Below the pieces are notes generated by a model that made no database searches, was not told the origin of the DNA, and worked only from the letters and a program-made list of their open reading frames with translations. A stretch of 64,000 nucleotides of DNA from Trypanosoma brucei (taxonomy: Eukaryota), in NCBI GenBank assembly GCA_000002445.1, contig CP000069.1, positions 864,001 through 928,000 of the forward strand, read 5' to 3'. Below are positions 1 to 57,295 of the stretch, piece by piece (the first letter of the stretch is position 1; every line of letters starts with the position of its first letter). A program made the translations under genes and the position numbers.

Positions 1-3000
1 GAGCAAGCCGTTAGGGATTTGGTGTGTTGTGCATTTGATGGGAGTTATTGCACGGTATTGGCGTATGGCGCTGCGGGGAGTGGTAAGACGTATAGTGTGC
101 TTGGACCCAAAGCACAGGAAAATATAATGGAAGAGGCAGGGATTTTCCTACGTGTATTTGAGGATTTATTTAGGTATCAGGAGAAAATGTCCAAGCGAAG
201 GCACATCATGTTTTTCGTAGCAGCACTTGAGCTGGTTGGCGAGCAGGTGTTGGACTTGCTAAAGAGGCGAAGTAAGATTCCTGTGAGTGATGTGTCAAGT
301 GATTATCTTTTGCACAACCTCCGCCACGCTGAAGTCACCTCGATGACCGAGGCCACGAATGTCTTCAATTTGATAAACGATATGCGCCAAGATTTGCCTA
401 CCGATGGAATTACACGTGGATCACGCTCTAGCGCTCTTATATTTATTGATATTGTTCAAGTTGCTCACAAACACTTCCCCGACCGTCCTACGCGGGAGAA
501 ATTAGTGGAAGTGGGCGGATTCTCTGTTGAACCTAGTGTGCGAGGCATCCTGCATTCGCGTGTGTTATTGGTAGATTTAGTGGGTAGCAACATCGGAAGA
601 ACCTCAGGTATTGGAGGAGAGGAAGTAATAGAGAATCTGGGAATGGCTAAATCTTTGCAAACATTGGGTATGTGTGTGCGCTCCTTGTATGTTGGGGACT
701 CGCATATTCCCTTTTGTGATGCCAAACTAACTGAGTTGCTGAAACCCTCGCTTGCTGAAAGTACGTCGCGCGTACTTGTGGTGGCCCATGTTTCTCCGCT
801 TGCTAAGGATGGTGACGAAACGAGAGAAACATTGTGCTTTTGTGATCGGATAAAGGAGTTCAAAGCTGATAAATCCTACAATGTTCCGTCCGCAGGGTTT
901 GGGGAATATGAAACTCAGCCGGTTACTCAGCACAGGGAACTTCTTGCTGATGTGAGAATTGCGGCTGCTGTTGCCTACTATACACCTCAACGCCCTTATT
1001 TTACGTCGATGCTAAAAGGTGTGAGCGTGAAAGAGGCACGCGATGCCGCAATTGTTTCTTTGAAAAACGAATTGGATGGCCTGGAAATGAGAAAGGAAAC
1101 GGAGTACATCAGTAAAGCAAAGGAAAAAATAATGAAGGACCGAGATAAAAGGGTACGTGGTTTCGCATCCAGGATGAATCAAATGATAGAGGAATACGAG
1201 GTAATTTCCCAGAAGGTCAAAGAAGAGAAGAAAGTTAGCAAGCACCTTACAAGGGAGTATGAAGCTAAGAGTGAGGAAGCCATAACGGAGGCCAAGAAGG
1301 CAAAAAAAAGTCGTTTGAAAGCCCAGGAGAAGGTGGAGAACCTTCGGGAGCAGCTTGGTTTGCCGAAGGTTGATTCGAGTTTGCCTAATCAGGAGAGTTC
1401 CCAATCACATAAGTACGATGATGACAAAATGTTTTGTGGTGGGTCGACGGAAGAACTTTCAAATGAGGAAAGGGAAAGGGAAACACTACTTGACAATCTT
1501 GTGAATGACTTTCAAACGGCAGCCAAGGACCTCAACGATGTCCACGCGACGTACGCGAAGCGCCTCACCGCCACTCAAAGGCAGAGAGCGCAAGTGCGAC
1601 GTATAAAAATGCTTTGCTCAGGAATTATATTGGATAGCACCCTAGTGGAGGATATTATTGATTTCATTATCGATCGAGCTGTTGATATCTCCCACAAGGT
1701 AATTAAACCATCGCAGCCGTATTCTTGGAAAAATATTGAAGGCCTTAGCACTGTTTTGAGAGGTGGTAACAGACTTTATCCACCGTTGTTCAATTCTATT
1801 CCAGATGCTACAAAAGTGGATAGTACAGGAGTATTTCATAGATGTACTTTTCTCAGCTCTGACGAAAGCGATGAGGAGAACTCTCACTATCCAGATGAAA
1901 CGCGGCGGCCAGTTGAGATGGACAATGATTTGTACGAACATTATTTGGCGATGGGTAATACGCAAAAGAAGGTGAAGGAGGACGGTAGTGCGGGTTCAGA
2001 AAAGAAGTCAGCAGCAAAATGGGGAGGGGAGATTTCAGAGACTGCACGAGACGAAGCGAGAAAGCCCGCGAAGGAGAATGCTGAAGATGGGGGTGTTGAG
2101 GGAAGTCCGATAGGGTTAAATGCATCAGCAACGGAATCGCTACATCTCGATGGCGACAACGATGGGGAATTTAATCAATCTGATAACAATGTCGAAGAGA
2201 GTGAGGAGCCTTTGACGGAATCGGAGAAACAGCGAATGCGGACACGTAGGGACCAGCAATACCTTATGCGTGTGTATGACTCACCTACCTTGGTCGACGA
2301 TCTCATAAAATTCTTGCGCGGTGGAACGGTAATGCTGAAGCACGGACGCATAGGAAAACCTCATCGTCGCCTGTTCTGGGTATCTATAGATAGGGAGAAG
2401 CGAAAGCTTCTATGGGCAGATCCCGATGCAACCGCAAGTCGCTCTAGCTCGTATGTTGACCTTGACAACGTGAGTTACATTCAAATAGGCTGTTTCAGTA
2501 AAGTTTTCAAACGGTACTGCTCGACATCGACGGATCCAAGTTTTTACCGTAGTTTTACGGTTGGTTTGAAAGATGGTAGTCGTACGGTTGATATTGTTGC
2601 CGACACATTAGCGGATTTTGAGGCTTGGGTGCTTGGTCTGTCTAACTTGGTGAGGGTAGATCCATCGTGGGGCGGGAAGTTGGATGTCTCAGTGGAGGTA
2701 AACTACGACCGTCTTAACTGCTTTGAGGTGAGTCTTTGCGAAACAAATTACATATTTCCTACGCAATACCTCATGTTAAAACGACGTGTGACGCAGATTG
2801 CGGCCCACACCCTCGAGGTTCTTCAGCAATGTGGAAATGATGTTGCAAAGGCCCAGGAAATTTTGAATGGTATTCATCCCCCAGGAATCAATGACAAGGG
2901 TGCTGTGTACCTTACAAAGGGTGAGTTACGCTTTGTTGGTCGCAACGAAATAGACATCATTCGTATCACCAAAATATGGATGTTGTTTCAACAAATGAAT

Positions 3001-3060
3001 CTTGTGTACGATGACAACTTCGTGCCGGCGACGACATTCGGTATCACTCGGCGGAGTTAG
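1..3060 (+). CDS. Kinesin-like motor protein with a C-terminal PH domain; 5' end truncated by the window edge
   Basis: The reading frame is open from nucleotide 1; the ORF-track start at 19 is a TTG. Motor motifs seen: P-loop AFDGSYCTVLAYGAAGSGKTYSV, switch I TRGSRSSALIFI, switch II LVDLVGSNIGRTSG, and VAHVSPLAKDGDETRETLCFCDRIKE. The last ~250 aa match a PH-domain pattern (GRIGKPHRRLFWVSIDREKRKLLWADPD ... FEAWVLGLSNLV). Confidence 0.85.
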   Translation, partial: EQAVRDLVCCAFDGSYCTVLAYGAAGSGKTYSVLGPKAQENIMEEAGIFLRVFEDLFRYQEKMSKRRHIMFFVAALELVGEQVLDLLKRRSKIPVSDVSSDYLLHNLRHAEVTSMTEATNVFNLINDMRQDLPTDGITRGSRSSALIFIDIVQVAHKHFPDRPTREKLVEVGGFSVEPSVRGILHSRVLLVDLVGSNIGRTSGIGGEEVIENLGMAKSLQTLGMCVRSLYVGDSHIPFCDAKLTELLKPSLAESTSRVLVVAHVSPLAKDGDETRETLCFCDRIKEFKADKSYNVPSAGFGEYETQPVTQHRELLADVRIAAAVAYYTPQRPYFTSMLKGVSVKEARDAAIVSLKNELDGLEMRKETEYISKAKEKIMKDRDKRVRGFASRMNQMIEEYEVISQKVKEEKKVSKHLTREYEAKSEEAITEAKKAKKSRLKAQEKVENLREQLGLPKVDSSLPNQESSQSHKYDDDKMFCGGSTEELSNEERERETLLDNLVNDFQTAAKDLNDVHATYAKRLTATQRQRAQVRRIKMLCSGIILDSTLVEDIIDFIIDRAVDISHKVIKPSQPYSWKNIEGLSTVLRGGNRLYPPLFNSIPDATKVDSTGVFHRCTFLSSDESDEENSHYPDETRRPVEMDNDLYEHYLAMGNTQKKVKEDGSAGSEKKSAAKWGGEISETARDEARKPAKENAEDGGVEGSPIGLNASATESLHLDGDNDGEFNQSDNNVEESEEPLTESEKQRMRTRRDQQYLMRVYDSPTLVDDLIKFLRGGTVMLKHGRIGKPHRRLFWVSIDREKRKLLWADPDATASRSSSYVDLDNVSYIQIGCFSKVFKRYCSTSTDPSFYRSFTVGLKDGSRTVDIVADTLADFEAWVLGLSNLVRVDPSWGGKLDVSVEVNYDRLNCFEVSLCETNYIFPTQYLMLKRRVTQIAAHTLEVLQQCGNDVAKAQEILNGIHPPGINDKGAVYLTKGELRFVGRNEIDIIRITKIWMLFQQMNLVYDDNFVPATTFGITRRS

Positions 3061-10884: not shown

Positions 10885-13137
10885 ATGCTGCATGAAATTT
10901 ACGCTCCACGGGATGTCGCAAGTATAGCTTGGAGCCGGCGGAAGCTAAGTGATTTTCAAAAACTAGTAAATAAAATACGAGAGGGGTTTGTGCCACCAGG
11001 TCCAATACTACTTTACGGACCATCAGGTTGTGGTAAACTTTCGTCTGTGTTAGCCATTTTTCAGCAGCCACAGCCGCAAACTCCTGGGGGTGGTGGCTCC
11101 TCTTCGCGTTGCTCTTTTTCACGTGCTCGAGTGTTGCATTCATGTGACGCTTCACCATGGGAATATCACCAATTTCTGATGGGTGTTCTGTCTGAGCACG
11201 GTGGCGCTAACAATAACGTAGTGGTCGATTCAGATAAGTCGGTTACTGCTAAAGCTCTTCAACGGGGTGAAGGTTCGGACGGCTTTTGTGCGGCGGTACC
11301 ACATGTGGTAAAGTTCTACGGAGAAGCACCAACTTCACTTTTGCATTCGGTAACGCTTCGTTTTCTTAATTACTACAACGCATACAGACACGAAACTTCC
11401 CTATGTGGTAACTCCGTCGGCGCAGTGAAAGATGGGAACTTGCTCACTTTACGTCGACATATATTGGTTTTAATATTCACCACCCATGACACACACAATG
11501 AAAAGGTGGCACTGGGGAAATTGCTGCCTTCAAGTATTCTTAATCACCCTTGTTTGCACATGTTCTATTGTCCACCTGTGACGGAGCGAAGTTTAATTAC
11601 TTGCATTAAACGGGTATTCAATACGGAGCAACTTCAGAGACGGAAACAAGGGCAAACCCCTCCTCCTCCTCTAAATGATGAGGAAATTAAATTATTGGCC
11701 GAGCAATGTCATGGCGACATCCGCCACGCTCTGCTTCAAACTCAATGGCTTTTGTTGAACACAAATGATCATATAGCGGGTGAAGAGCAGAAGGTACAGA
11801 AGGCACCGCAGAAGCGGCGGAGGTCACCACGTGTTGGTGCTCAGGCATTGAGGAGTATGGAAGATCTCCTGGCTGATGATTTTGAAGAAAGCAATACGTC
11901 TGGAAGCATGGTAAAACCGCCCAGCACAGCTAAAGGAGACAATATGAATGGTGATAATGAGAACTCGAATAGCTCAAAGTCATTGTCGCAAGAAAATGAA
12001 GGTCTTTCAGTATCTAGAGATGATTATCTTGATGTCTCCCATGCTGCAGCACGCGTACTCACACAAAAGTACACAATGGAGTCAGTGGTGCAGCTACTCA
12101 ACGTGGAACCAGACAAATTACTCGGGTATCTCACAAACAACATGCTCCCTTACTTCCTTCCTGAACATATGGAGCCATGCGCACTAACCGCTGCCGCCGC
12201 GAGTTATTCCGATGCTCTACGTGTCTCAGCTGTTAATTATAGGTTTATTCGCAGCAACCATGGACTATTCACCACTTCGCTCACTGGTGACAATGAAAAC
12301 GAAGGAACAGGACCTACAGATATCAGATTGATATCCCTTCTACTCTTCGGCAAAGCTTATACTGTCTACCACAAAAATGTTTACGTTCCAAGTGTGTTTG
12401 GTGGGAAGCGGGCGCCCCCTCATCTCGCCTTTGCGTATCCACGGTTGAGGGAGTTGCAATTTGCTCGTGGTCGATATAAATTTCGTAACGATGAATTGGA
12501 AATGAATGAACATGACTCTGAGCGAGATGGGGAGAAAAAGTTTGCCCTATTTTCGAGTGAGGAGGAATGGCGTCGTGACTTTTTGCACCGCTTAGAGTTG
12601 CAGTTGTCTAATGGCGAAAATCAGATAGGACCTGTGGTTGATGTATTAAAGGAGACGCTTCCGCCACTTCTTGATAGGTGCAACTCACTGGATTCGCTTA
12701 TTCTTGAGTATGCACCATATGCGAGGCGGATTGTGCTCAATCACTCATCGTCCCCCTCGGAATCACCTATCCGTACTTGTAACGCAAATGTCAGCAGCCC
12801 TTCGAGATGCATTGGTGGTACTACGCCACCTCCGGAATTGAAGAGCGCAGGGGCGCTTTCACGTCCAAAGCGGACGTTATTTATGGTTGGACAGAAAACT
12901 ACGACAGTAGGCCATGAACAGCCCAAACGCCGGTGCTCGAACCTGAGATATCGTGCATTGTGTGTCGGACTCCAAAAAACGCCGCCAATCAGGGAAGAGT
13001 TTTTTTACTTACCCACCGAAGAAGAGGAATGTGATGATGATGCACCAGAGTGTTTTTCAGGGCAGACTACTGTGCGACCCAGCGGTGGTTCTTCATGGTT
13101 GCCCGAAGGAGAGGTAATTGAGGAGTTTAGCGATTAA
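10885..13137 (+). CDS. Rad17/RFC-like clamp-loader-type P-loop protein (Walker A degenerate)
   Basis: The first ATG is at 10885 (track GTG at 10873). N-terminus EIYAPRDVASIAWSRRKLSDFQ...PPGPILLYGPSGCGKLSSVLAI parallels the Rad17/RFC box II-III region (ILLxTGPxGCGKTT), but GKL replaces GK[ST]. The long remainder has no recognisable domain. Confidence 0.45.
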   Translation: MLHEIYAPRDVASIAWSRRKLSDFQKLVNKIREGFVPPGPILLYGPSGCGKLSSVLAIFQQPQPQTPGGGGSSSRCSFSRARVLHSCDASPWEYHQFLMGVLSEHGGANNNVVVDSDKSVTAKALQRGEGSDGFCAAVPHVVKFYGEAPTSLLHSVTLRFLNYYNAYRHETSLCGNSVGAVKDGNLLTLRRHILVLIFTTHDTHNEKVALGKLLPSSILNHPCLHMFYCPPVTERSLITCIKRVFNTEQLQRRKQGQTPPPPLNDEEIKLLAEQCHGDIRHALLQTQWLLLNTNDHIAGEEQKVQKAPQKRRRSPRVGAQALRSMEDLLADDFEESNTSGSMVKPPSTAKGDNMNGDNENSNSSKSLSQENEGLSVSRDDYLDVSHAAARVLTQKYTMESVVQLLNVEPDKLLGYLTNNMLPYFLPEHMEPCALTAAAASYSDALRVSAVNYRFIRSNHGLFTTSLTGDNENEGTGPTDIRLISLLLFGKAYTVYHKNVYVPSVFGGKRAPPHLAFAYPRLRELQFARGRYKFRNDELEMNEHDSERDGEKKFALFSSEEEWRRDFLHRLELQLSNGENQIGPVVDVLKETLPPLLDRCNSLDSLILEYAPYARRIVLNHSSSPSESPIRTCNANVSSPSRCIGGTTPPPELKSAGALSRPKRTLFMVGQKTTTVGHEQPKRRCSNLRYRALCVGLQKTPPIREEFFYLPTEEEECDDDAPECFSGQTTVRPSGGSSWLPEGEVIEEFSD

Positions 13138-17263: not shown

Positions 17264-18157
17264 ATGGATGGCAAGGAAGATGGTTTAAACAACCGAAACT
17301 CAAATACGGATACTTCTAAGGATTTTCAGATAGTGGAGTTGCGTGCCATTGAAAAGGAACTTTTGGTACTGAGGGCACGAAGTGAAGCTTGGGAGTCAAC
17401 CGTAGCGGAGGTATTGGAATGGATCTCAGGTGCCTTAAGGGGAGATCCCCTCCATCTTCAACTCATAGAACTTCTCCTCGAAGAGCTTGACGGAAACGGA
17501 GGAATCGAGAGGGTCCTCACTGAGGAGAAATTTTGTAAATTCTGCGGCTCACCTCTTTTTAAAATGCATGATAAGTTGCCATATTCATCATCGAGGTCTG
17601 CTTTTAGTGGAAGAGAAGCAAGTGTCTACGTTACCGGAAGCAACGCAGATTTTGAACAGAAATATTCACACGTTTACACAACTTCCTTTACATCGTCCTC
17701 GTTACCAGAGGGCAAACCCAAATGGTCAGGAAGGGCAGATTCACCGGAATTCAAAAATCCGTTTTATAACCAGTGCAGGTGCTCGAGCAGTCCTCCACAA
17801 GGTAGACCAGAAGATTCATATGGGCAAACGTATGCCCAGAACCGTCGCCACGGAAGTTACTGGAACTCAGCGGAAAGGCAAAGCAGTTGCGTATATAGCA
17901 GCAACAGGGGTAGCCAATCTGGTAGCTGTTATATGAATTTTCCAGGCTATCACAATGTCTGGGGAGCACCTACTGATAACAGTACGGCTTACGAGGCTTG
18001 TTCAACTTCGGAAACGTGGAGAAATTACCCAAATGAATCTCGTTTTCACGTATTTGATAGTGGAAGCGACGAACAGCGTCCCATAGATTATTTGTACATC
18101 CGTGCATCTGGAAGAATAATCCCTGTTGACCCAAGCGACCGCTGGCCCTTTTGTTAG
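17264..18157 (+). CDS. Hypothetical protein, Ser-rich, no recognisable domain
   Basis: ATG verified. 297-aa ORF on the + strand, in register with the polycistron, with a pyrimidine-rich region upstream. No motif recognised. Confidence 0.5.
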   Translation: MDGKEDGLNNRNSNTDTSKDFQIVELRAIEKELLVLRARSEAWESTVAEVLEWISGALRGDPLHLQLIELLLEELDGNGGIERVLTEEKFCKFCGSPLFKMHDKLPYSSSRSAFSGREASVYVTGSNADFEQKYSHVYTTSFTSSSLPEGKPKWSGRADSPEFKNPFYNQCRCSSSPPQGRPEDSYGQTYAQNRRHGSYWNSAERQSSCVYSSNRGSQSGSCYMNFPGYHNVWGAPTDNSTAYEACSTSETWRNYPNESRFHVFDSGSDEQRPIDYLYIRASGRIIPVDPSDRWPFC

Positions 18158-28526: not shown

Positions 28527-29573
28527 ATGCTGGCTTCTCAACTGAAAACCGCGGCGGAAAAGCTCACTGAACATTGTGGAAGAGATGATTACTACTGGAC
28601 AACTGACAATGAAATGCATGCCGTGCGGCGGAGGAAGATGCTGGAAAAGTATAGCAGTGAAATCAAGAAACTCTATGGACCTGATCCACTAACATGGAAA
28701 ATCGCAACGGCGGTCGTTCTCTTTCAGATTTTCCTGGGCTCATTGGCGTCCAGCATGAGTTGGCCTGTGTTTCTGCTTACCGCTTATGCAATTGGTGGTA
28801 CGGCGACGCACAACAGCTTCTTGGCCGTCCACGAAATAACTCACAACTTGGCATTTCGTAAGGCTGTGCACAACGAGTTGTTTGCCATATTCCTTAATAT
28901 AATTGTGCCCCTACCGTACGCAATGGGATTTAAATCTCATCACAGGGATCATCACAATTACTTAGGGTGGGAGCGTGTTGACCCAGATTTACCGACGGCG
29001 CTGGAAGGGAAATTGCTTTCCAGCTACATTGGCAAATTTTTCTTTGTTACGTTCCAAGTTTTCTTCTACGCACTTCGTCCCACTCTTGTTAGAAAAATGA
29101 AAATAACGAGGATGCATGTACTAAATATTGTTGCTCAAATTATATTTGATGTTATATTTTACATGTTATTTGGACCGTGGTGTATTATTTACTTCTTCTT
29201 ATCACTCGTGTTGGGTACTGGTTGGCACCCATTGGCTGGTCACTTCCTTACTGAGCATTATATCTTTCAAGGTGACGGAAGTCAGGAAACCTTTTCTTAT
29301 TATGGTCCACTGAACTGGTTAGCTTGGAATGTCGGCCATCACGTGGAGCATCATGATTTCCCGTACGTTCCGTGGAGGCATCTGCACAAACTTCGTGAAA
29401 TTGCCCCTGAATTCTACGAAAACCTTGAGGTGACCCCCTCGTGGCCTCTTGCCTTATACGATTTCGTGTTTAAAGTTAACATGAATCCGTTCTCACGTAC
29501 CGTGCGTAGGAAAGGGTCATATCTACATCCAGATTTGCGGTCCGCTGAGGTAATCGGAAAGGAAGAAAATTAA
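28527..29573 (+). CDS. Sphingolipid delta4-desaturase (dihydroceramide desaturase, DEGS family)
   Basis: The track start 28476 is a TTG; the first ATG at 28527 gives an N-terminus whose length matches DEGS1. The Lipid_DES-like N-terminus YYWTTDNEMHAVRRRKMLEKY is followed by histidine boxes HEITHN, HHRDHHNYLG and HVEHHDFPYVPW. The product is collinear with DEGS1. Confidence 0.9.
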   Translation: MLASQLKTAAEKLTEHCGRDDYYWTTDNEMHAVRRRKMLEKYSSEIKKLYGPDPLTWKIATAVVLFQIFLGSLASSMSWPVFLLTAYAIGGTATHNSFLAVHEITHNLAFRKAVHNELFAIFLNIIVPLPYAMGFKSHHRDHHNYLGWERVDPDLPTALEGKLLSSYIGKFFFVTFQVFFYALRPTLVRKMKITRMHVLNIVAQIIFDVIFYMLFGPWCIIYFFLSLVLGTGWHPLAGHFLTEHYIFQGDGSQETFSYYGPLNWLAWNVGHHVEHHDFPYVPWRHLHKLREIAPEFYENLEVTPSWPLALYDFVFKVNMNPFSRTVRRKGSYLHPDLRSAEVIGKEEN

Positions 29574-29827
29574 CACTATATGGTGGTGGTAGTGAGATGC
29601 TCTGCATGTTCGTCTCTCTTTATTTTCTCCTTTTGCTTTCCTCTGGTGCACCTCTTACATTGGACTACTGCCGCAATGACGCTTCTCCTTTCTCTTCTAT
29701 TTACTCCACCCAATGCTTTTTTCCTTGTCTAAATAATCGGGTCAGTGATTTGATTGATTGATTATTATTTTTTTTTAAAAAATGAGGTTTGTGAATCGGA
29801 AGCGGAGATGGAAACATGTTTATGTAT

Positions 29828-29830
<3 letters not shown>

Positions 29831-29875
<45 letters not shown>
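29831..29875. repeat. (TA)22 microsatellite
   Basis: Perfect TA dinucleotide run read directly in the intergenic spacer downstream of the desaturase gene. Confidence 0.95.
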
Positions 29876-29878
<3 letters not shown>

Positions 29879-31693
29879 GTGAGTATTGATGTATAGGATT
29901 GAGGTATACGTCTCTGCGAACGTGGGGAAACTGAAATGAAAAAGGGGGAAGAAGTGCTGCATACCATAAGGAAAGCAATATAGATGAAGGGTTGAACTGA
30001 AATCTGAAAAAAATGGAGAGAACATCTTGGGAGAAGACTATCGAATAAGGAGAAGAGGAAGGACACGACGCAGTTGAAGTAAATAAATTAATATACGGCA
30101 ACAGTGAAAACTAGTGTGTTAGAAGGGGGAAAAAAGAAAAAAAACGAGTAGACAATAACGTAATAAAATCTACCCGAAGGGGATGTATAATGGCGACTGT
30201 TCAAGGTAAGTAGGGTAGTGTGCCTTTCTTTTCATTTGTTGACGAATCATCCTTGTGCGGATGCGGCCCGGCGTTTTCTTTGGGGTTTGTTGTTTCCTTA
30301 CGTTGCGTTATGTTATGTTTATGTTTTGTGATTTGGTGCATAAGGAAAAGGTAATATGTGAAGTTGTGTTGCCTGAAAGAGCGCGATTGAAGAGGGAACG
30401 GAAACACGAAGAGGAAGTTGAAAAGTAAATATCGGGTTTAAATCGTCTTCAGGAATTCAACTCTTTTTTCCTTGTGTTTTTTCGTTCCCCACAAACGACG
30501 AACTTTAAACACACAGGTGAAGACGCGTAAGCATATGTATTTATATATATATGGTTTTCAAACTCTCATACTCCATGAGATGTCCCCTTATCTGGGAGCG
30601 GATTTTCATTGGGTTTGAGAATAGTGCGGAGATGTGTTGGTTCTCTCTAAATTTCCTTTGTTATTTTATTCTTTTTCTGACAATCATTTTTCTTTTTTTT
30701 TTTATCGCTGTTGTTGATGAGTGGCACGTACATGAAGAACGTATACTTGGACGTATTAGTAGATAAAGTGCTTGCTCTTTTGGCACACGCACACACACAA
30801 TTCGCGAGCAGATTTTCGAAGTAAGCGAAAACGCATCTATGACAATATTTAATGGTGGTGATGTTTTTTTTGTATATATCTTTATCAAATTGCGGTTGCA
30901 TGTTCTGTCTTTACGTTTGGAAGTTGTGACTTTCGATGGCAGGAACTTTCACTGATTGGGGGAAAAAATAAGAAAGGTGAGAAATATCACCAAATAATGT
31001 TGTAAATTGTACCTTAGTGAAAATCTGTTTGTTAGGTTCTTCTTCCCCTATTTTCATCGTTTAATGGTCATCAAAACGGTCTAATAGGGTGACGAATAAA
31101 TGAGGTGTATAAGAGAGGAAGAGGAAGAAAGAATATAATATATGATAGAAAAGGAATTGTGGAAGGAAAAGGAAGAAAGTTGATTGAAAATACCGATTTG
31201 TTTTGTCGCTCAACGTCGTCAGTTGCTGGGATGTCGGGCAGGTGCTCGTGGTGACGGGACAACCACAGATAAGAGGGAAATAACCGAGAAGAAGTGTAAG
31301 TTGATGTGTGATAGAAAATCTTGTGGTTAAGGTCACCACAACAAAGTAATAAGGAAAAAAAATAACGCGAGGCAGAGAAAGTAGAATCAACGAGAGTGTG
31401 CCCTCGTTTGCGCCATACTGTTAAATAGCGTGATTCATAAAGCACAATACCAGCTTTATAAGGAGCAGGATGCTCTCTGATTTTGGTCAAATGAATAAAT
31501 ACATTGCCGTATTTGGCTTCCTAGGCTGAAAAATAGTCTCAGGGGTTTCTTGATATGTTTTTTATTTCTCTCTACGGTCTTAATGGTTCTTATTGTGTTG
31601 TTAATTCCTTCTGACATCTTTTCAGACTTAACATGATGGATAACACATTTAAAAACATGTCGGCACACCTTCTGCTTTTCTTCTTTCTTTTTG

Positions 31694-31696
<3 letters not shown>

Positions 31697-31734
<38 letters not shown>
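31697..31734. repeat. (TA)19 microsatellite
   Basis: Perfect TA run read directly, 30 nt upstream of the ATG of the PH-PH-Kelch gene. Confidence 0.95.
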
Positions 31735-31735
<1 letters not shown>

Positions 31736-31765
31736 GAACAAAGGGAAATTGGTGATCCATTCCTG

Positions 31766-33643
31766 ATGACGCACGGTAGTAATAATGATTCTACCAAGAT
31801 TTCCTCGTGGTTGCAAAAGAAAGCGGAATGGCGCTTTGCCTGGGATCGTCGTTTCGTGGTACTTGAGGGGCTGCGGCTGTCGTATCGAATAGAAGAAAAT
31901 GGGCCCGTGAAGAAATGTGGCATTATCGCATCACTTCTTCGTCAGGTTGATTCTAACAACTCACATGCATTTCGTGTATGGCTGAAGGATGGTGAATGTT
32001 GGACTCTGCGGGCTGAGAGCAGTGAAGTACACCAAATGTGGGTTGACGAAATTACTCATGTGCTTGAGAGGGAGGCGTTGTTTGACGCAAAAAATACACG
32101 TAAAGGTATGGTACTAAAACAAGGACTGTGGACGGGCAAGTGGAGGCAGCGATTCGTGGAACTTGAGGGGTGCCGAATTGCGTATCGTGAAAAGAAAGAG
32201 GGTCCGGTACGGCACCGCTATGAAATCGTTTCAGCAGACGTTCGAAGAGGTGAGGAGAGCAAAGGGGACGAACTGTTAGTAACAACAGAAGGGGGTAATT
32301 CGTTCTGGCTCAAGTTTACAACGCCCGAGCAGTGTGAAGATTGGATGTGTACTATGTTGCGTGGGGTGAGGCGTTCCTTGCCGTGGCATTGGTTGCCGGT
32401 GATACCTCTACGGCATCCTCTCCATTGTGAAATTGGGCTACAATTTCATGCCGCTTCCAGCACTACAAGAGGTGGTTCGACTGTGTACTGCTACGGCGGA
32501 TCCCCCACCTCGGCACTCTTTCGTTATCTTCCCTCTAATGATTTATTTGTACCATTAGTTCAACGAGGAACAGTTGTGCGTAATCTCGTGTCTATCCGAC
32601 TATCTGCACAGCATCCTATTAGTTTTGTTGACGCCTTGCCGTACGAGGAAAGCGCGCATGCTAAACTCCGTCCACCTCCCTTGCTTGGTGCTGCCATGTG
32701 CACCCTCAGGGGTGTCCGTTCCTCTCCACAAGCTGCAGCATCATATACCGATGATTTTAATACAAGCGCCGGTTCTTCTGCCGTTGTGAATGGGAACTCG
32801 TGCACAAATTTGGTCGATTGCCTTGTTTTGGTAGGTGGTCGTGGAGATTCAGGTATAATACGTGATGCCACAACAGAGGTGTGGTGGTGCGTTTTCAGTG
32901 AAACACGTGGACAGTGGACTCGCTGTGCTGTGGAGAAGTCTGTGCTCCCTAATCGCACGTTCCACACACTAAGTGCCATTAGCCCAAAGGAGGCGATTCT
33001 TGTTGGTGGTGTCGATGAGAACAATCAGCCATGCTCCGAGTGCTTTTCACTGTCTTGGTCCAATGAGATCGACGATGCGGATATTTGCTTCTCTTTCCCA
33101 CCCACAATAACAGCTGTGACCCCTCTTCCATATCCCCTCGCTCTCCACGCAGCGGTGGTAATGAAGGATGGTTCGCTGCTTGTTGTGGGAGGCGGAGATA
33201 CGAGTCGAGGATCACAACCAACCTCTAGTCATTTTTTTCGTTTGGCTGACGTTGGTGGATCGTGGGAACGAGTAACATTAGAACCCCCGCTACCATCCAT
33301 GTACAATATCACCGCCGCGGCGGCTGTTATCGAAGATAAAGAATATGTGCTTGTTTTGGGGGAGCCCCGAAATGCGCGGCGAGTGCCCACGTTGTACAGG
33401 GTAATATTTAAAGACTACACAAAAGGAACTGTGGACGAGATACCATTTGTTAATGAGTTTAAGCCCCAGTGTAGCTATGGAGCGTCAATGCATATATCGG
33501 ATGGCTATTTGTATATTATTGGTGGAAGGGTGTGTGGTCCTGTGGAAAACGACTACGAATCGGGGCTGCCGATGAACGAACCGATTAGGGCAGTGATTGG
33601 CGTTAGGGAGGATCCTGCTAATTATGACGAAAGAGCAGAATAG
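31766..33643 (+). CDS. Tandem PH-domain protein with a C-terminal Kelch-type beta-propeller
   Basis: The track ORF opens inside a (TA)n tract at TTG 31691; the first ATG is at 31766. Two PH-like modules are seen (WLQKK..WRFAWDRRFVVLEG...HQMWVDEI, and LWTGKWRQRFVELEG...CEDWMCTML). Repeated LxxxGG blades follow (LVLVGGRGDSG, ILVGGVDENNQP, LLVVGGGDTSRG, YIIGGRV). Confidence 0.6.
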   Translation: MTHGSNNDSTKISSWLQKKAEWRFAWDRRFVVLEGLRLSYRIEENGPVKKCGIIASLLRQVDSNNSHAFRVWLKDGECWTLRAESSEVHQMWVDEITHVLEREALFDAKNTRKGMVLKQGLWTGKWRQRFVELEGCRIAYREKKEGPVRHRYEIVSADVRRGEESKGDELLVTTEGGNSFWLKFTTPEQCEDWMCTMLRGVRRSLPWHWLPVIPLRHPLHCEIGLQFHAASSTTRGGSTVYCYGGSPTSALFRYLPSNDLFVPLVQRGTVVRNLVSIRLSAQHPISFVDALPYEESAHAKLRPPPLLGAAMCTLRGVRSSPQAAASYTDDFNTSAGSSAVVNGNSCTNLVDCLVLVGGRGDSGIIRDATTEVWWCVFSETRGQWTRCAVEKSVLPNRTFHTLSAISPKEAILVGGVDENNQPCSECFSLSWSNEIDDADICFSFPPTITAVTPLPYPLALHAAVVMKDGSLLVVGGGDTSRGSQPTSSHFFRLADVGGSWERVTLEPPLPSMYNITAAAAVIEDKEYVLVLGEPRNARRVPTLYRVIFKDYTKGTVDEIPFVNEFKPQCSYGASMHISDGYLYIIGGRVCGPVENDYESGLPMNEPIRAVIGVREDPANYDERAE

Positions 33644-34727
33644 ATTTTTTTGTCTGTTTTCACAAAACAGAACATGAGGACAGTAAGCATGTAGCCACAC
33701 TACGAAAAAGAAAAAGAGGAGGGGCATCGTACGGAACTATTACATCAGCAAATACATCCGTGTCAACGCACGTGCCAATGCGCTGCTTGCACCAGTAGCG
33801 GTGAGAGATGCTTTAACCATCGTACTCACTGCATTTGTCTTGGTGTGAGAATTCAGTATAATAGAACCCGTGAAATCGTGTAGTGTTGTAAGAGTATTGG
33901 CTGCCGACGCTCGGTGTTCTTTTTCTCTTTTAAATGTTGTATTTATCTCTGCCACCCAGCTGGCACACGTTCGTTCATTGCTTTCCCATCCTTTTATTAT
34001 TATTGTTGTTGGCGGTGCTGCAACCACTTCTTCGTATTATCGCCGTGGCGCGCGCCGCTACTTTATGCAGTGATGGCCGTTTTCTCGTTTCTTTCATTTC
34101 TAAAAACTTTGAACGGCGCTTTCCTCGTCGACGCTTTACATGTCAGCGGTTCATGAAAGCAAATAGTGGCTAGAGAGCTACTGTTGATGCCGAGTTGCTA
34201 AATACCTTGAATAATGGTTTCCTTTGATTTCACTAATGATTTGGCGCCGCTTCTCCCCCTTTTGATATAAATATTGAATATTGTTGCTGTTTTTTTTTTT
34301 TTTATGTGTGTTTGCCTCTCGCTTCATTTTACCACCTGTATCAGAGGTGGAAACACTTCCGCATCTGAAGTGCTGAAGCAATAGCCGTGCTGAGCGAGAA
34401 AGGTAAAAAAGAACGATTGGCGTGACATGATGGATGTACAGGTCTGTTGTGCATCCACAAATATGCATGTTGTAACTCATATGGTATGGAGATCGATGGG
34501 AATCGGTGTTTAGTCAAAATTGAACATTTTCATGAGGGATGTGCTCGGAAGAAATTTCGTTTTTGTTCTCAATCACCTATTTTCCCTCATCTTTTTTTTT
34601 GGTATCGATGAGCAGTATATTCATGCATTTCATCGAATGAATAGAAACGCTGTCTCTTTACTTGGTTGTTATAAATTTCTCTTTCTTACAACTGTCTCCG
34701 GCTCTCAGAAGTTATCCACCCATGTGT

Positions 34728-34967: not shown

Positions 34968-35834
34968 ATGCAACCAAGAAAAACGGTTAAAAAAGTAGAT
35001 GTGGAGCCATCACCTGAGGAGGATGCGGAGCTTCTTCCCCATTTGAAGGTATCAGCGAAGTGGTCGGAACGTGCTGCGAACAATGGTAAGAGCTTAAGTC
35101 AGGTGCAATTTCTACTCGGAGCCCTTGGGAAACAATTAGAGGATTGCAATAAGGAACTTGCATCCGTGTACGCAAACGCTGATTTGCTGTCATCACTGCG
35201 TATAACCGAGTACCGGCAGCGTAACACACCTGGTGGGTTGCTTACACCTACACGGAAGGCGCGGACGAAGCGTAACGCATCAACACGTCCAGTGGCGCGG
35301 CAGCAACTGGACGAAAACAGTACGGAAGCACTGATTGCTGCCATGGATGAAAAGAAACGCGCAAGGGTTACAGCTGCACTCATTGCGTTTTTTAAACGGG
35401 ATATGCAAGAGCAAAATAGTCCCGCTTACCAAAACGCTAGCACACCTGTACCTCAGGGTGCGAACCATTCGTCCACGCGCACGTCGCAAACGTTGGGTCG
35501 CATTCCCTCCGCTAATTCCCACACTATGTTATGTGAATCAAACAAAGGTAATCAACCGTCTTGTTCAAATGGGAACGAGTTACCCACTCTTTTGTCTGAG
35601 ACTCAGCAGCAACAGCTTCGGCGGCACCGCGATATACCACCGGAATTGTGGGATGAGATGGCGAAGTTACGACTTAGACGACTCAGCTTAGAAGAGAAAA
35701 TCGGGAGTCTACTCAGTAACATCAACGCGCAAACGGAGCGGTTTGGTTTACTGATGGAGGTCCAAGGGGTTAATTCCTATTCCACGGAAAGTGTGAATCG
35801 CGCGATTGAAATGATACGCCAGAAACGAGCTTGA
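34968..35834 (+). CDS. Hypothetical protein
   Basis: ATG verified. A long polypyrimidine tract lies upstream at 34728-34826. 288-aa ORF with no motif recognised. Confidence 0.5.
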   Translation: MQPRKTVKKVDVEPSPEEDAELLPHLKVSAKWSERAANNGKSLSQVQFLLGALGKQLEDCNKELASVYANADLLSSLRITEYRQRNTPGGLLTPTRKARTKRNASTRPVARQQLDENSTEALIAAMDEKKRARVTAALIAFFKRDMQEQNSPAYQNASTPVPQGANHSSTRTSQTLGRIPSANSHTMLCESNKGNQPSCSNGNELPTLLSETQQQQLRRHRDIPPELWDEMAKLRLRRLSLEEKIGSLLSNINAQTERFGLLMEVQGVNSYSTESVNRAIEMIRQKRA

Positions 35835-39516: not shown

Positions 39517-40239
39517 ATGAGTAGCGACAGTTCAGACTCAGAAAAAAGGTTACTTGCATATAAAGTTATTGTTGTTGGTGATGGCGCTGTTGGTAAGACA
39601 TCGCTTATCCGCCGTTACTGCGTAGCGGACTATGGCTCCAATTACAAACAAACTATCGGTCTTGATTTCTACTCAAAAGAAGTTCTACTTCCAGGAAAGC
39701 AAGACGTGAAAATGGAAATATGGGACATTGGAGGACAACAAATTGGTGGTACAATGATTGACAACTACATCATGGGGGCCCACGCCATTTTCTTTGTGTA
39801 CGACGTAACAAACAAGGATTCCTTTAAGAATATAGAAGATTGGCATAGTTGTGTGCGCGACTCTTTGGCTAAGCATGCAAGGGAGACAGCGGAAGAAGGT
39901 GCAGCTGCGGTGGAACCACTCATTGTGTTAGTAGGCAACAAGGCAGATCTCCCTAATCGTCAAGTGTCGGATGCGGATCACATGAAGATGGCGGAGATGC
40001 ATCGGATGGAGTCATGTGTCGTGTCCGCCTGCTCAGGGGAGCGCGTCAATGCGCTCTTCACGCAGTTGGCAGCGACTCTAAGCGGCGTGCGCCTTCCTGA
40101 AGATGCGCTAAATTTGGAAGAGCGCGTCGTTGCTAATTTGCAGTTACTGCCCGAGGACTGTGTGGGGCCAGGGGTTTCTGGACCGGGTGGAGGAAAGGAA
40201 TGTGGAAAAAAAAAGAAGGGTAAATGCGCAGTGATGTAG
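39517..40239 (+). CDS. RAB28: Rab28-like small GTPase
   Basis: ATG verified. G1 GDGAVGKTS; a G3 with WDIGGQ (in place of WDTAGQ) and QQIGGTMIDNYIMGAHAIFFVYDVTN, both Rab28 hallmarks; G4 GNKADL; C-terminal CaaX box CAVM (Rab28 is farnesylated via CAVQ-type boxes). Confidence 0.75.
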   Translation: MSSDSSDSEKRLLAYKVIVVGDGAVGKTSLIRRYCVADYGSNYKQTIGLDFYSKEVLLPGKQDVKMEIWDIGGQQIGGTMIDNYIMGAHAIFFVYDVTNKDSFKNIEDWHSCVRDSLAKHARETAEEGAAAVEPLIVLVGNKADLPNRQVSDADHMKMAEMHRMESCVVSACSGERVNALFTQLAATLSGVRLPEDALNLEERVVANLQLLPEDCVGPGVSGPGGGKECGKKKKGKCAVM

Positions 40240-43030: not shown

Positions 43031-43741
43031 ATGAAAGGCTTGGAAGAGTGGCTTGCATCGTCCACATCATCATCTTCCACAACTGACACGACGAGTAGGG
43101 ATGTACCAGAAAGTGATAAGGTGCACAAGAAAACAGTGCAAACTAGTGTGAAGGATCGTCAGGACGAGTTGCGATCCCGTATGCGCAATCTTCTTGGGGA
43201 AAGCGCTGTGAGCAGCCTTGTCATTGAGGAACCGACGAAAGTGGCGATGACGACAAGTCCCACTGCTGTATTGAACTCGTCTATGAGCACCGACACCGAC
43301 AGTACAGCGGTTTCTCCCGCCCGTGTGAAAGGCGTTTCCCCCCAAACCAAAGCCAATGGCAACAGTAATGGCGATGGCAGCACAGCCATCAGAGGTCAGT
43401 CAAATGATAAGCAACTCGAGGCACCCACTGAGGTACAGTACCGGGCTGTAGAAGTGATGGTGGTTGATCGAGGTACACAAACAACCACGACGGTGGGTTG
43501 TCAAACAGATCCTGAGCCTTCACAATCTCCTGTGGGAGGCGCCATGCCGTTTCATCGCGGTTTTTGCCCTCGTTGCACTTGTTGTTGTCGTGGTGTCGTT
43601 CGGGATTACCCGTGGCGAAACGCGCGTGAGGAGGAAGATCGTTCCTCACGATTTCAAGAAGAACTGGAAACTATACAAAAATCCATAGATATGATGATTG
43701 CACGATATAATTTACCACCACCACCGATGCCGCGGTATTGA
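43031..43741 (+). CDS. Hypothetical protein, Ser/Thr-rich with a Cys-rich C-terminal segment
   Basis: ATG verified. 236-aa ORF on the + strand. No motif recognised. Confidence 0.4.
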   Translation: MKGLEEWLASSTSSSSTTDTTSRDVPESDKVHKKTVQTSVKDRQDELRSRMRNLLGESAVSSLVIEEPTKVAMTTSPTAVLNSSMSTDTDSTAVSPARVKGVSPQTKANGNSNGDGSTAIRGQSNDKQLEAPTEVQYRAVEVMVVDRGTQTTTTVGCQTDPEPSQSPVGGAMPFHRGFCPRCTCCCRGVVRDYPWRNAREEEDRSSRFQEELETIQKSIDMMIARYNLPPPPMPRY

Positions 43742-46534: not shown

Positions 46535-47086
46535 ATGCCCGTTACTTCTTTCAATAACCGTCATTCTATAGTTGATGAAGCCACTGCTGCCTTCATGCTT
46601 TGCGCAACTGAAGTAAAGCGCATGTGGGGGGAACAGTCTTTTATTGCCAAACTTTGTGCAATATTGATGAAACATTGGAGGACACGACGCTGCATGTTAT
46701 TTTTAGTTGCATGGATCGCTTTCATGGGATGTTGTTACGGTTTGCGTAGCCGCTTGAAACGTTTGTTGCTCTTTTCTACAGATCAGGCGGATGAAGAAAA
46801 GGATTTTCCCGAGGAGGGCACCATCTCTGAGGGTAGTTGTAGCGTTTGCGAGAATCAATGCATTGAGGTGGGTGAAAATAGTTTCAGTGACGTGCTTTAC
46901 GGCAGCGAATGGCCCAGATTTGAAGGGGCAATCCCAAATGAAAAAGTTAAATCCCTCCTTGGTGATGACTTCGATCCGACAGATCAATTTGACGCGACGT
47001 TTAACCATTTTTTGGCTTCTCAATCTGGAAGGTGCGATGGTGATGATACTGAGGAATGTGGTTCTAAAAGGGAAAGTGGAGAGTGA
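46535..47086 (+). CDS. Hypothetical small protein with one predicted TM helix and an acidic C-terminus
   Basis: ATG verified. Hydrophobic segment CMLFLVAWIAFMGCCYGL. No motif recognised. Confidence 0.4.
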   Translation: MPVTSFNNRHSIVDEATAAFMLCATEVKRMWGEQSFIAKLCAILMKHWRTRRCMLFLVAWIAFMGCCYGLRSRLKRLLLFSTDQADEEKDFPEEGTISEGSCSVCENQCIEVGENSFSDVLYGSEWPRFEGAIPNEKVKSLLGDDFDPTDQFDATFNHFLASQSGRCDGDDTEECGSKRESGE

Positions 47087-53144: not shown

Positions 53145-54062
53145 ATTCCTCTCCGTTATTTCCTTCAACACATATACAAGCATGTGTGTATAGATAAATA
53201 TATATACGTACATACTTGTATTCATTTATATTTGTTTATTTATATATTATGTGTCGTAATGTTTCTTTTTATATCTAACTGCGCGTGCGTGAGTAAGCTG
53301 TCATTCATCATTTAAACGAAGATGAAAGGGAGAAAAATAGAGAGGTGTATCCCAGTTGAGAAAAGAAACAACTCATTTGTTGTACAAAATAGAAGCGCTT
53401 ACACTATTGTTAGCGGTATACAATTCCTAAGAAAAAGACAAACATAAGGGGGGAAATCATGGCCTCTTTGTTGCAAGCACATCACCAAAGGAGGAAAAAG
53501 GAAACTGACAGAATAGGGTTGGAGGAAGCGAACGTGGGGGCAGTTAGAGGTGGACCGTGTCAGTGTCAAAGGAAGAATGCAAACGGAAGTAGGGGAGTGT
53601 ATCAGAGAAGAAAGAAGAGGAGATTAATAGGGTACACATATACGTACATACTTTTTTTTCTCGGAAAATGCGAGGTATTCAGACTCGAAGGACGGTACGA
53701 GCGTTCCACAATTTTTCTTGCCGCTTTTTTTTCTTTACCGTTGTCATCAGGGTGCTTGTTCATTTATTCGTGTTATTTAATTTTGTGTGCTCTTCCCCCC
53801 CTTTTCTGCGGTATTAATGTTTCTGATGGTCCCTCTCTTACAATGCTACGGATCCTGAGTGTGCCTCTTATTCGTGTCACGTGTTTCCTAATCTTACTTC
53901 TACTATTACTATTATTTCTACTACTGATTTTCCCATCTTTGCCATTACTGAGTTTGTTATGTTTTAAGTCTCTTTTTTCCTCGCGACGCGGTACCCTTCT
54001 TTCCCCTCATTTTTACTTTCGTTGTTGTTTTTATCTTATGTTGTGGCTTGCTTCATAACTGC

Positions 54063-55975: not shown

Positions 55976-57295
55976 ATGGATTCACCAACTGAGTTTTCTT
56001 GTGGTACACAATGGGATGATGATAGACGAGGGGAGGAACCACTACTTCCAGAACTTACACTGCACGGTTGCGGCCTTCGGAACTTGTCTTTGATAGTGCG
56101 TGGTGCTCAAGGAGCTGTTTATTCGGCACACGACGAGAATGGTAATCGCTTTGCGGTCAAGAGACTTTTCACGCAGCGCAGCGATTTTGGGATTCGTGGC
56201 GTTTCTGAAGGCGCATTGCGGGAAGCGACATTACTGACACTTGTTAGACAGGAAATGGAAAAACTGGTACATGACACCGCTTTTGATGTTGTCCGTCTGC
56301 AGGGAGTGGTTGAAGCACCATACAAAGAACTATGTCTTATTTTGGAGTATTGTTCTCTCGACCTCTCACAGGTGGTCGTCAAGTCTAAGCGTCACACGCG
56401 AAGTTTTCCTTTAGTTGCCGAGGGACCTCAGGTGCGGTGCCCCGTGCTTTCGAATATGGGTGTTGTTCGGTATCTATTGCGCGGAATTCTCCAAATACTC
56501 AACAATCTCCATGTTAATTGCCGTATTATCCATCGTGATGTGAAACTGAGCAACTTTCTCGTTAGAGGGGACGGCAGCGTTAGGTTGAGTGATTTTGGAA
56601 GTGCCCGTTTGCTGCATGAGACTGTAGAGGAAAAGGAAGCAGCTGAGTGCGTTACTAGCGATCCGCAGGATGAAGACGAGGTTGACTGTAGCGATCCGTT
56701 TTCTCACAGCTGCGAAGGTTACACTCCCGCTGCTCAGCGGACAACTTTGATATATCAAGCACCTGAATGTCTACTTGGGGAACGCACGTACACAACTGCT
56801 GTGGACGTATGGGCTGTTGGCATTGTTTTTGCCGAAATATTGCTTCAACGTCACCTCTTCCGTTCTGTCAATGAACTAACGTTGATATCAGACATTTGGA
56901 GGCTTCTAGGAACACCTTCAACTAAAGGCGAAGATCCCAACATTCAGGGCACCAATGGCGTGACATTTGCGGCACCCACTGAACCCACTGTCGACGTAAA
57001 GTTTAATGATGATATTGTTAGTCCGGAGGGACGTGATTTGCTGAAAAAAATGCTTGAAGTGGATCCCAAGAAACGTGTCACGGCAGCGGATGCATTGCGT
57101 CATTCGTTTCTGACCAGCGTAGATGCACAACTGAGTCTAAAGGAGGCCCCTGCGCTGTGGAGAGAAAAAGTAAAAGAATGTTTGGAAGGGGGAACACAGG
57201 CAGTCCCCATGGGGGCTCCATTCCTTGCTTTAGATGACGATGAGGAAGAAGAAGAAGAAGAGGAAGACGTTGACATGAACATGGCCACACTTTGA
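55976..57295 (+). CDS. CMGC-group (CDK-related) protein kinase with an activation-loop insert and an acidic C-terminus
   Basis: ATG verified. Kinase motifs: GAQGAVYSA, AVKRL, a PSTAIRE-like helix GALREATLLTLV, IHRDVKLSNFLV, DFGSAR...YQAPE, WAVGIVFAEIL. The C-terminus is a poly-Glu/Asp tail. Confidence 0.7.
   Translation: MDSPTEFSCGTQWDDDRRGEEPLLPELTLHGCGLRNLSLIVRGAQGAVYSAHDENGNRFAVKRLFTQRSDFGIRGVSEGALREATLLTLVRQEMEKLVHDTAFDVVRLQGVVEAPYKELCLILEYCSLDLSQVVVKSKRHTRSFPLVAEGPQVRCPVLSNMGVVRYLLRGILQILNNLHVNCRIIHRDVKLSNFLVRGDGSVRLSDFGSARLLHETVEEKEAAECVTSDPQDEDEVDCSDPFSHSCEGYTPAAQRTTLIYQAPECLLGERTYTTAVDVWAVGIVFAEILLQRHLFRSVNELTLISDIWRLLGTPSTKGEDPNIQGTNGVTFAAPTEPTVDVKFNDDIVSPEGRDLLKKMLEVDPKKRVTAADALRHSFLTSVDAQLSLKEAPALWREKVKECLEGGTQAVPMGAPFLALDDDEEEEEEEEDVDMNMATL

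Follow-up and report, generated by a model that had tools for sequence, protein, structure and literature searches.

Tb927.6.3010 of Trypanosoma brucei: a predicted PH-PH-Kelch protein of kinetoplastids

The window analysed here is a stretch of 64,000 nucleotides of Trypanosoma brucei (contig CP000069.1 of assembly GCA_000002445.1, positions 864,001 to 928,000 of the forward strand), and its feature of interest is an uninterrupted plus-strand reading frame of 625 amino acids, which extends from ATG 31766 to TAG 33641-33643. This locus is the already annotated gene Tb927.6.3010 on chromosome 6 of T. b. brucei TREU927, whose product is predicted to have a PH-PH-Kelch(6) architecture, in which a complete six-bladed propeller comes immediately after a pair of adjacent PH domains and no other domain is present. 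When all lines of evidence are read jointly, we favour, with confidence somewhat better than even, an ordinary PH-PH-Kelch gene that starts at position 31766, is preceded by a neutral TA tract and would encode a membrane-recruited soluble adaptor. The protein is placed as an uncharacterised member of the well-known modular class of PH and Kelch adaptors. About half of the trypanosome genes are described as "conserved hypothetical" and Tb927.6.3010 is among them, its public annotation being "hypothetical protein, conserved" or "PH domain-containing protein". Public databases already contain this gene along with its boundaries and Pfam matches, and its domains are familiar and constitute no new kind of element. 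What is added here is a confident assignment of six blades, the location of canonical invariant lipid-pocket residues in PH2 and not in PH1, and the recognition of a single kinetoplastid-restricted family with deep synteny.

Predicted domain architecture and the Kelch propeller

A preliminary description of this locus, made from the sequence, had proposed two PH-like modules ahead of a Kelch propeller, and this core claim was upheld by profile searches as well as by structure prediction. Pfam analysis of the whole protein revealed PH matches in two stretches with an E-value of 5.4e-15, and when the two pieces were scanned separately, PF00169 exceeded its cut-off of 25.1 bits with each of them (39.6 bits with residues 1-106, designated PH1, and 29.3 bits with residues 107-206, designated PH2). 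The basic motifs quoted in that description, W15..K18K19..W22 and K125-W-R-Q-R-F130, are present, as are the tryptophan residues of the C-terminal PH helices, of which W92 is invariant and W193 is retained in 26/27 sequences. The AlphaFold model used here was built with 27 family members (pLDDT 83.9, pTM 0.80) and supersedes an earlier run with nine Trypanosoma-type sequences, which gave a pLDDT of 67 and was poor in the region of residues 214-347. As anticipated, the model contains two PH folds and a propeller: PH1 comprises strands within residues 11-82 and a helix at 86-109 (with W92), PH2 comprises strands within residues 111-183 and a helix at 187-204 (with W193), and these strands and helices are predicted with pLDDT values of 83-95. 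Disordered segments are limited to residues 1-8, 326-344, 590-603 and 615-625.

In the model of the Trypanosoma protein, the helix of PH1 passes straight into strand beta1 of PH2. A low-complexity insert of approximately 35-105 amino acids is observed between PH1 and PH2 in Leishmaniinae, in the Novymonas, Phytomonas and other orthologues, in the sequences P0009 and P0021, and in the metagenomic sequences P0030, P0031 and P0032, and hence the rigid tandem arrangement is not conserved across the family. Foldseek comparisons relate the PH tandem to centaurin-alpha1/ADAP1 (ArfGAP-PH-PH) and to FARP1/FARP2 (DH-PH-PH), with approximately 225 columns aligned over both PH domains at E-values of 7e-8 to 3e-7. 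However, ADAP1 and FARP1/FARP2 couple the PH tandem to a GAP or GEF catalytic domain, whereas in Tb927.6.3010 it is coupled to a propeller.

The remainder of the protein is predicted to form a closed propeller of six four-stranded blades, such that the propeller itself was correctly recognized in the preliminary description, but the count of at least four blades given there is raised to six. Pfam matches to this region include Kelch_KLHDC2_KLHL20_DRC7 (PF24681) with 50.9 bits against a cut-off of 50 for residues 344-587, Kelch_4 with 42.8 bits (cut-off 21.6) and Kelch_6 with 32.7 bits (cut-off 25.3), while blades I and II are not detected by Pfam and are revealed by the structure model. Each of the six blades has a recognizable strand-B motif, namely VYCYGG 245, LVLVGG 358, ILVGG 415, LLVVGG 476, VLVLGE 533 and LYIIGG 587, with GG doublets at residues 244-245, 357-358, 414-415, 475-476 and 586-587 and with LGE 531-533 in their place in blade V. 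Those residues of the propeller that are invariant occupy structural Kelch positions: the GG doublets, the Trp residues and, in strand A, His/Arg. Additionally, a family-specific conserved segment, P292-Y-E-E-x-x-H-x-K-x-x-P303, is located in the region of blades I/II.

The five closest solved propellers include the cullin-RING ligase receptors LZTR1, KLHDC3, KLHDC2 and FBXO42, and the best Pfam Kelch model is that of KLHDC2/KLHL20/DRC7. Such matches are in line with a propeller that recognizes substrates for a cullin-RING ligase, in the manner of LZTR1, KLHDC2/3/10 and FBXO42, with the PH domains steering ubiquitination to membrane-associated substrates. We nevertheless consider this explanation improbable, because no BTB, BACK, F-box or BC/Cul2 box was found by Pfam in the full protein at E <= 10, because the 14 unconserved residues 612-625, which are all that lies C-terminal to the propeller, are too few to accommodate a BC or Cul box, and because likeness to the six-bladed Kelch fold is generic, with the non-ligase proteins ESP/NSP, TYW4 and muskelin scoring equally well. 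The Kelch domains of LZTR1 and KLHDC2/KLHDC3/KLHDC10 are 14-17% identical to the Tb927.6.3010 propeller; these proteins differ from Tb927.6.3010, which does not have the BTB/BACK or BC/Cul box that links to cullin and carries two PH domains ahead of its propeller. A catalytic propeller of the specifier-protein, sialidase, NanM or galactose-oxidase type, instead of a binding platform, is extremely improbable: identity to these types is 8-18%, the NANM match reaches 14.9 bits against a cut-off of 45, and the invariant residues are structural, with no conserved candidate active-site cluster seen among them. In RABEPK/p40, yeast Kel1/Kel2 and Schizosaccharomyces pombe Tea1, the Kelch propeller constitutes a protein-binding platform without an E3 module and functions in trafficking or polarity. 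To our knowledge, none of these proteins contains PH domains, and their likeness to Tb927.6.3010 may serve as a lead.

Conserved pockets of the PH domains and the proposed adaptor function

Conservation of pocket residues was counted in the alignment of 27 family members (n = 27 for PH2 and n = 26 for PH1), which points to a conserved basic pocket that appears to be most canonical in PH2 rather than in PH1. Residues K118, R127 and R129 of PH2 fall on the K-Xn-(K/R)-X-R signature and this domain aligns with the PH domains of TAPP1 and AKT2/3, with weak E-values of 0.05-0.45. K118, W122, W126 and R129 are invariant in 27/27 family members, R or K is found at position 149 in 27/27, Y140 in 25/27 and R151 in 24/27. 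The likeness to the C-terminal PH domain of TAPP1 and to that of AKT/PKB resides in the K118 ... W126-R127-x-R129-F residues of PH2, which are superimposable on GxxxKxG...W(K/R)x R(Y/F)F, but it is tempered by the weakness of these matches and by a non-basic residue at position 127 in 8/27 relatives. Solved sequences closest to PH1 are the PH domains of ARAP3, ORP11 and CERT, and K18, R29, Y40 and K49 of PH1 are kept in at least 24/26 sequences. From these patterns, the PH2 pocket may bind a phosphoinositide.

Based on this anatomy, we infer that the Tb927.6.3010 product could act as a soluble adaptor, in which the tandem PH module would dock the protein on a phosphoinositide-containing membrane and the Kelch propeller would then hold a protein partner at that membrane. 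PH2 is the apparent main docking site and is favoured as such since K118 and R129 of its canonical pocket are the same in every family member. A membrane-recruited adaptor is suggested by the invariant PH pocket residues in combination with a propeller that has no E3-ligase module.

Several observations weigh against this proposal. The first basic residue of the motif is missing in PH1 (K18...D27-R-R29), with D, E or N at position 27 in 23/26 sequences, and in PH2 position 127 is R or K in 19/27 and Asn in 8/27. More generally, for many PH domains the ligand is a protein, or a lipid held only weakly, and only a minority of them are high-affinity phosphoinositide binders. In the predicted structure, confidence is low for residues 326-344 and 590-603. 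Furthermore, neither "Tb927.6.3010" nor "Q583N3" was found in the searchable texts of papers, and the gene was not found in the searchable supplements of TrypTag and LOPIT; literature queries that combined PH and Kelch with trypanosome or kinetoplastid returned irrelevant papers only. The deviations at positions 27 and 127, together with the limited share of PH domains that bind phosphoinositides with high affinity, could instead suggest that the PH domains of Tb927.6.3010 do not bind lipids at all and serve as protein-interaction or structural modules of a soluble scaffold without a membrane step. This alternative is given some weight but is judged unlikely, as K118 and R129 occur without exception, and Y140, R149 and R151 with few exceptions, in members that have diverged widely, a pattern in keeping with a preserved pocket for an anionic ligand, and as PH1 retains K18, R29, Y40 and K49 in nearly all sequences.

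An extension of the membrane-recruited adaptor, which we put forward tentatively and as possible rather than probable, is that this family represents a kinetoplastid-specific class of phosphoinositide effectors, whose PH tandem would recognize a membrane lipid, such as one of the flagellar pocket or of the endosomal system, and whose propeller would recruit a lineage-specific partner by its P-x-E-E..H.K..P loop. No characterised eukaryotic protein with such a membrane-to-propeller coupling was found. If true, such an effector, placed at endosomes or the flagellar pocket, would constitute a lineage-specific trafficking component of a pathogen, which would be useful to know but not surprising.

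A single family in kinetoplastids and its synteny

The product encoded in the window matches XP_845422.1/Q583N3 of T. b. brucei TREU927 with 100% identity, and 3 residues set it apart from its T. b. gambiense DAL972 counterpart. Orthologues in seven other Trypanosoma lineages exhibit 39-44% identity over 96-99% of the length, which places this open reading frame (ORF) well beyond chance. When 1.84 billion cluster representatives were searched with a profile, 28 proteins were retrieved at E <= 1e-30, approximately 20 of which are collinear across the PH and Kelch parts, with the lower-scoring matches being restricted to PH or to Kelch. Named members are from T. vivax, Novymonas esmeraldas, Phytomonas, T. 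cruzi, T. grayi, T. conorhini, T. rangeli and T. melophagium, and metagenomic members of 560-690 amino acids have the identical PH-PH-Kelch Pfam pattern along with the family-specific invariant residues. A second, word-indexed profile search for named distant relatives was dominated by generic Kelch proteins and added nothing. By sequence comparison, PH-PH-Kelch proteins thus appear to represent a single orthologous family of trypanosomatids and of kinetoplastid-type environmental genomes, and the domain combination, described earlier as uncommon, turned out to be that of one family confined to kinetoplastid-type genomes among the cluster representatives searched.

The gene neighbourhood is conserved as well. 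The T. cruzi orthologue is a full-length collinear relative, as a comparison suggested in the preliminary description showed, and in T. cruzi and on a trypanosomatid contig (L002) the genes are arranged in the order kinase, DUF1796, PH-PH-Kelch. Three PH-PH-Kelch loci from separate metagenome samples (L001 10001-11764, L006 10001-11857 and L007 6593-8335) are situated in tightly packed one-strand arrays, whose gene calls have no signs of introns, and have in common the order [large protein]-[~200-250 aa]-[PH-PH-Kelch]-[GSHPx]-[Metallophos]. The PH-PH-Kelch gene of L001 is flanked by PseudoU_synth_1 on its upstream side and by AAA_2 on its downstream side, and the product of the latter shares 48% identity with the AAA_2 protein that T. 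brucei encodes two genes 3' of Tb927.6.3010. These three contigs are probably derived from free-living kinetoplastids and exhibit deep synteny with the T. brucei locus.

A predicted protein of 1302 amino acids in EukProt (P0019) with DUF1796 joined to PH-PH-Kelch was considered as evidence of a functional link and rejected. Its residues 1-364 cover the whole of the T. brucei DUF1796 protein (papain-like peptidase) and are followed by approximately 220 junk-like, non-homologous residues, a Met and the PH-PH-Kelch N-terminus. A complete DUF1796 with such a spacer and a Met indicates that P0019 is probably a gene model that merged two neighbouring genes and not a true fusion.

Start codon, 5' leader and chromosomal context

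Coordinates of the features in the window are collected in Table 1. Translation of Tb927.6.3010 begins at ATG 31766. The closest in-frame stop codon on its 5' side is TGA 31634 and no in-frame ATG is present between the two, so that translation in a eukaryote could not begin earlier in this frame than at ATG 31766. The next in-frame Met is M91, and a start at this position would remove most of PH1. Among the named records of the T. brucei group in the protein cluster, 4/4 are called with 625 amino acids, and the N-terminal SWLxKxAEWRF block, which begins at residue 14, is conserved, with similarly short leaders ahead of it in other Trypanosoma orthologues. Annotation of this start had been regarded as fragile, since an ORF tool runs the frame back through the TA repeat to TTG 31691 (650 amino acids). 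TTG is not used as a start in eukaryotes, and this extension is an artefact of applying a bacterial set of start codons (ATG, GTG and TTG) to a eukaryote. The concern is not supported either by the transcriptome data of Kolev et al. 2010 (PMC2936537), as Tb927.6.3010 is absent from their list of genes with an acceptor inside the ORF (Table S1), and it is also absent from the lists of ORFs without transcript (Table S2) and of alternatively processed genes (Table S3).

Table 1. Positions of Tb927.6.3010, its predicted domains and associated features in the window
Feature	Position	Strand	Basis
Coding sequence of Tb927.6.3010, 625 aa and stop	31766..33643	+	Translation; match to XP_845422.1/Q583N3; published poly(A) coordinates
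PH domain 1, residues 11-109	31796..32092	+	PF00169 39.6 bits; AlphaFold strands 11-82, helix 86-109, pLDDT ~90
PH domain 2, residues 111-204; K118 ... R127-x-R129, Y140, R149, R151	32096..32377	+	PF00169 29.3 bits
Predicted six-bladed Kelch beta-propeller, residues 207-611; low-confidence insert 326-344	32384..33598	+	AlphaFold model
3'UTR to predominant poly(A) site, 288 nt; averaged 3'UTR 421 nt	33644..33931	+	Kolev et al. 2010, Table S13 (PMC2936537)
Polypyrimidine tract (CCTTCTGCTTTTCTTCTTTCTTTTTGCTT), likely trans-splicing signal	31668..31696	+	Pure C/T run; conservation in T. b. gambiense
(TA)19 microsatellite, length-polymorphic	31697..31734	.	Tandem Repeats Finder: period 2, 19.0 copies, 100% matches
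First AG past polypyrimidine tract, candidate spliced-leader acceptor	31742..31743	+	AG listing; inferred only
Eight (TA)n tracts (start positions)	3830, 8737, 26970, 29831, 31697, 34858, 39362, 42616		At least 6 units
Sphingolipid delta-4 desaturase (Tb927.6.3000)	28527-29573		

Given what is generally known of trans-splicing in trypanosomes, the polypyrimidine tract upstream of the gene likely signals trans-splicing of the Tb927.6.3010 mRNA. It includes the longest pure C/T run (31675-31692) within 470 nt 5' of ATG 31766 and is kept in T. b. gambiense with one substitution. The first AG beyond this tract is the probable spliced-leader acceptor, and its use would generate a 5'UTR of 22 nt. 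The sole other AG in the last 220 nt, 31624-31625, would generate a 5'UTR of 140 nt that includes three out-of-frame upstream ATGs and the TA tract. These ATGs, at 31633, 31636 and 31657, open reading frames of 32-40 codons, which close just 5' of the main ATG, and they are relevant only if the distal acceptor is used. Tb927.6.3010 was not found in the searchable spliced-leader-trapping supplements of Nilsson et al. 2010.

The polypyrimidine tract directly abuts the (TA)19 tract, whose position next to the ATG agrees with the preliminary description, but whose spacing from it, given there as 30 nt, was measured as 31 nt (31735-31765). The TA repeat is part of the spacer that separates the polypyrimidine tract from the probable acceptor and contains no AG, and it would be neutral there. 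At the matching site of T. b. gambiense DAL972 the repeat is (TA)9, with 3 substitutions in approximately 230 nt of flanking sequence, and no TA tract was found 5' of the T. cruzi orthologue, which together identify (TA)19 as a polymorphic microsatellite. Eight (TA)n tracts, with 6-22 units each, occur in the window and every one is intergenic (8/8), yet approximately 67% of the window is coding, and their distance to the next ATG is 31-1891 nt. TA microsatellites are therefore a general feature of the intergenic regions of this window. Judged by these comparisons, (TA)19 appears to be an ordinary polymorphic microsatellite tolerated in this spacer and without a demonstrable link to Tb927.6.3010. 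Another of the eight, a (TA)11 tract, is situated 133 nt ahead of the ATG of the Rab28-like gene.

The placement of the TA tract, with the best polypyrimidine tract directly on one side and the first AG on the other, and the variation of its length between subspecies (19 versus 9 units), could be taken to mean that it is a functional cis-element, which tunes the choice of the trans-splice site by spacer length or forms a translation-damping hairpin in a long 5'UTR. In support of the latter, the leader that would arise from use of the AG at 31624 is predicted to fold to -32.5 kcal/mol (z = -3.07) and to form a TA hairpin approximately 20 nt 5' of the AUG. However, this predicted fold is attributable largely to the self-complementary (UA)n, as any such tract would fold, and seven further (TA)6-22 tracts are present at arbitrary intergenic positions of the same window. 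Since the tract is also missing in T. cruzi, and since a two-fold difference in its length between nearly identical subspecies argues against constraint, a regulatory role is given very little credence and a neutral microsatellite is preferred.

Placement of the gene on the chromosome is consistent with published poly(A) coordinates. The predominant poly(A) site of Tb927.6.3010 is at 897931 with a 3'UTR of 288 and a dispersion of 132.76 (Kolev et al. 2010, PMC2936537, Table S13), which sets its stop at position 897643 of chromosome 6, corresponding to 33643 of the window. When published poly(A) coordinates are compared with ORF stops, the offset of 864000 fits three genes, the other two being Tb927.6.3040 (poly(A) site 904719, UTR 480), which leads to position 40239 and the stop of a Ras-family ORF, and Tb927.6.3110 (poly(A) site 921584, UTR 289), which leads to position 57295, where a kinase ORF ends (Kolev et al. 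2010, PMC2936537).

The gene upstream of Tb927.6.3010 encodes a sphingolipid delta-4 desaturase and is named Tb927.6.3000 (Nilsson et al. 2010). In T. brucei and T. b. gambiense, this desaturase gene lies between DUF1796 and the PH-PH-Kelch gene. Neither T. cruzi (L005) nor the trypanosomatid contig L002 has it at this place, and DUF1796 is located there approximately 210-260 nt 5' of PH-PH-Kelch. The desaturase gene thus looks like a lineage-specific insertion between these two genes. The intergenic/3'UTR region 29574-31765 that follows it is unusually long, at 2.2 kb, and includes (TA)22 at 29831-29874. Rfam and tRNA scans of the whole window gave no matches, and hence the length of this region is not explained by a hidden RNA gene.

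All ORFs of at least 200 amino acids in the window (25/25) are on the plus strand, and Tb927.6.3010 is located within one such one-strand polycistronic unit, as is typical of trypanosomatids. Six plus-strand ORFs of 183-750 amino acids have no Pfam match at the thresholds used (34968-35834, 43031-43741, 46535-47086, 53459-54058, 10885-13137 and 17264-18157) and constitute further conserved-hypothetical genes of this unit. Other ORFs of the window encode ordinary housekeeping proteins, such as AP-4 epsilon, XMAP215, IFT46, TGT, DnaJ, ALDH and the Rab28-like GTPase. Finally, a kinesin motor ORF at 127-3060 on the plus strand, which is truncated by the start of the window, has in its tail a weak PH-like match (PF25406), and this match is probably unrelated to the PH domains of Tb927.6.3010 in the same transcription unit.

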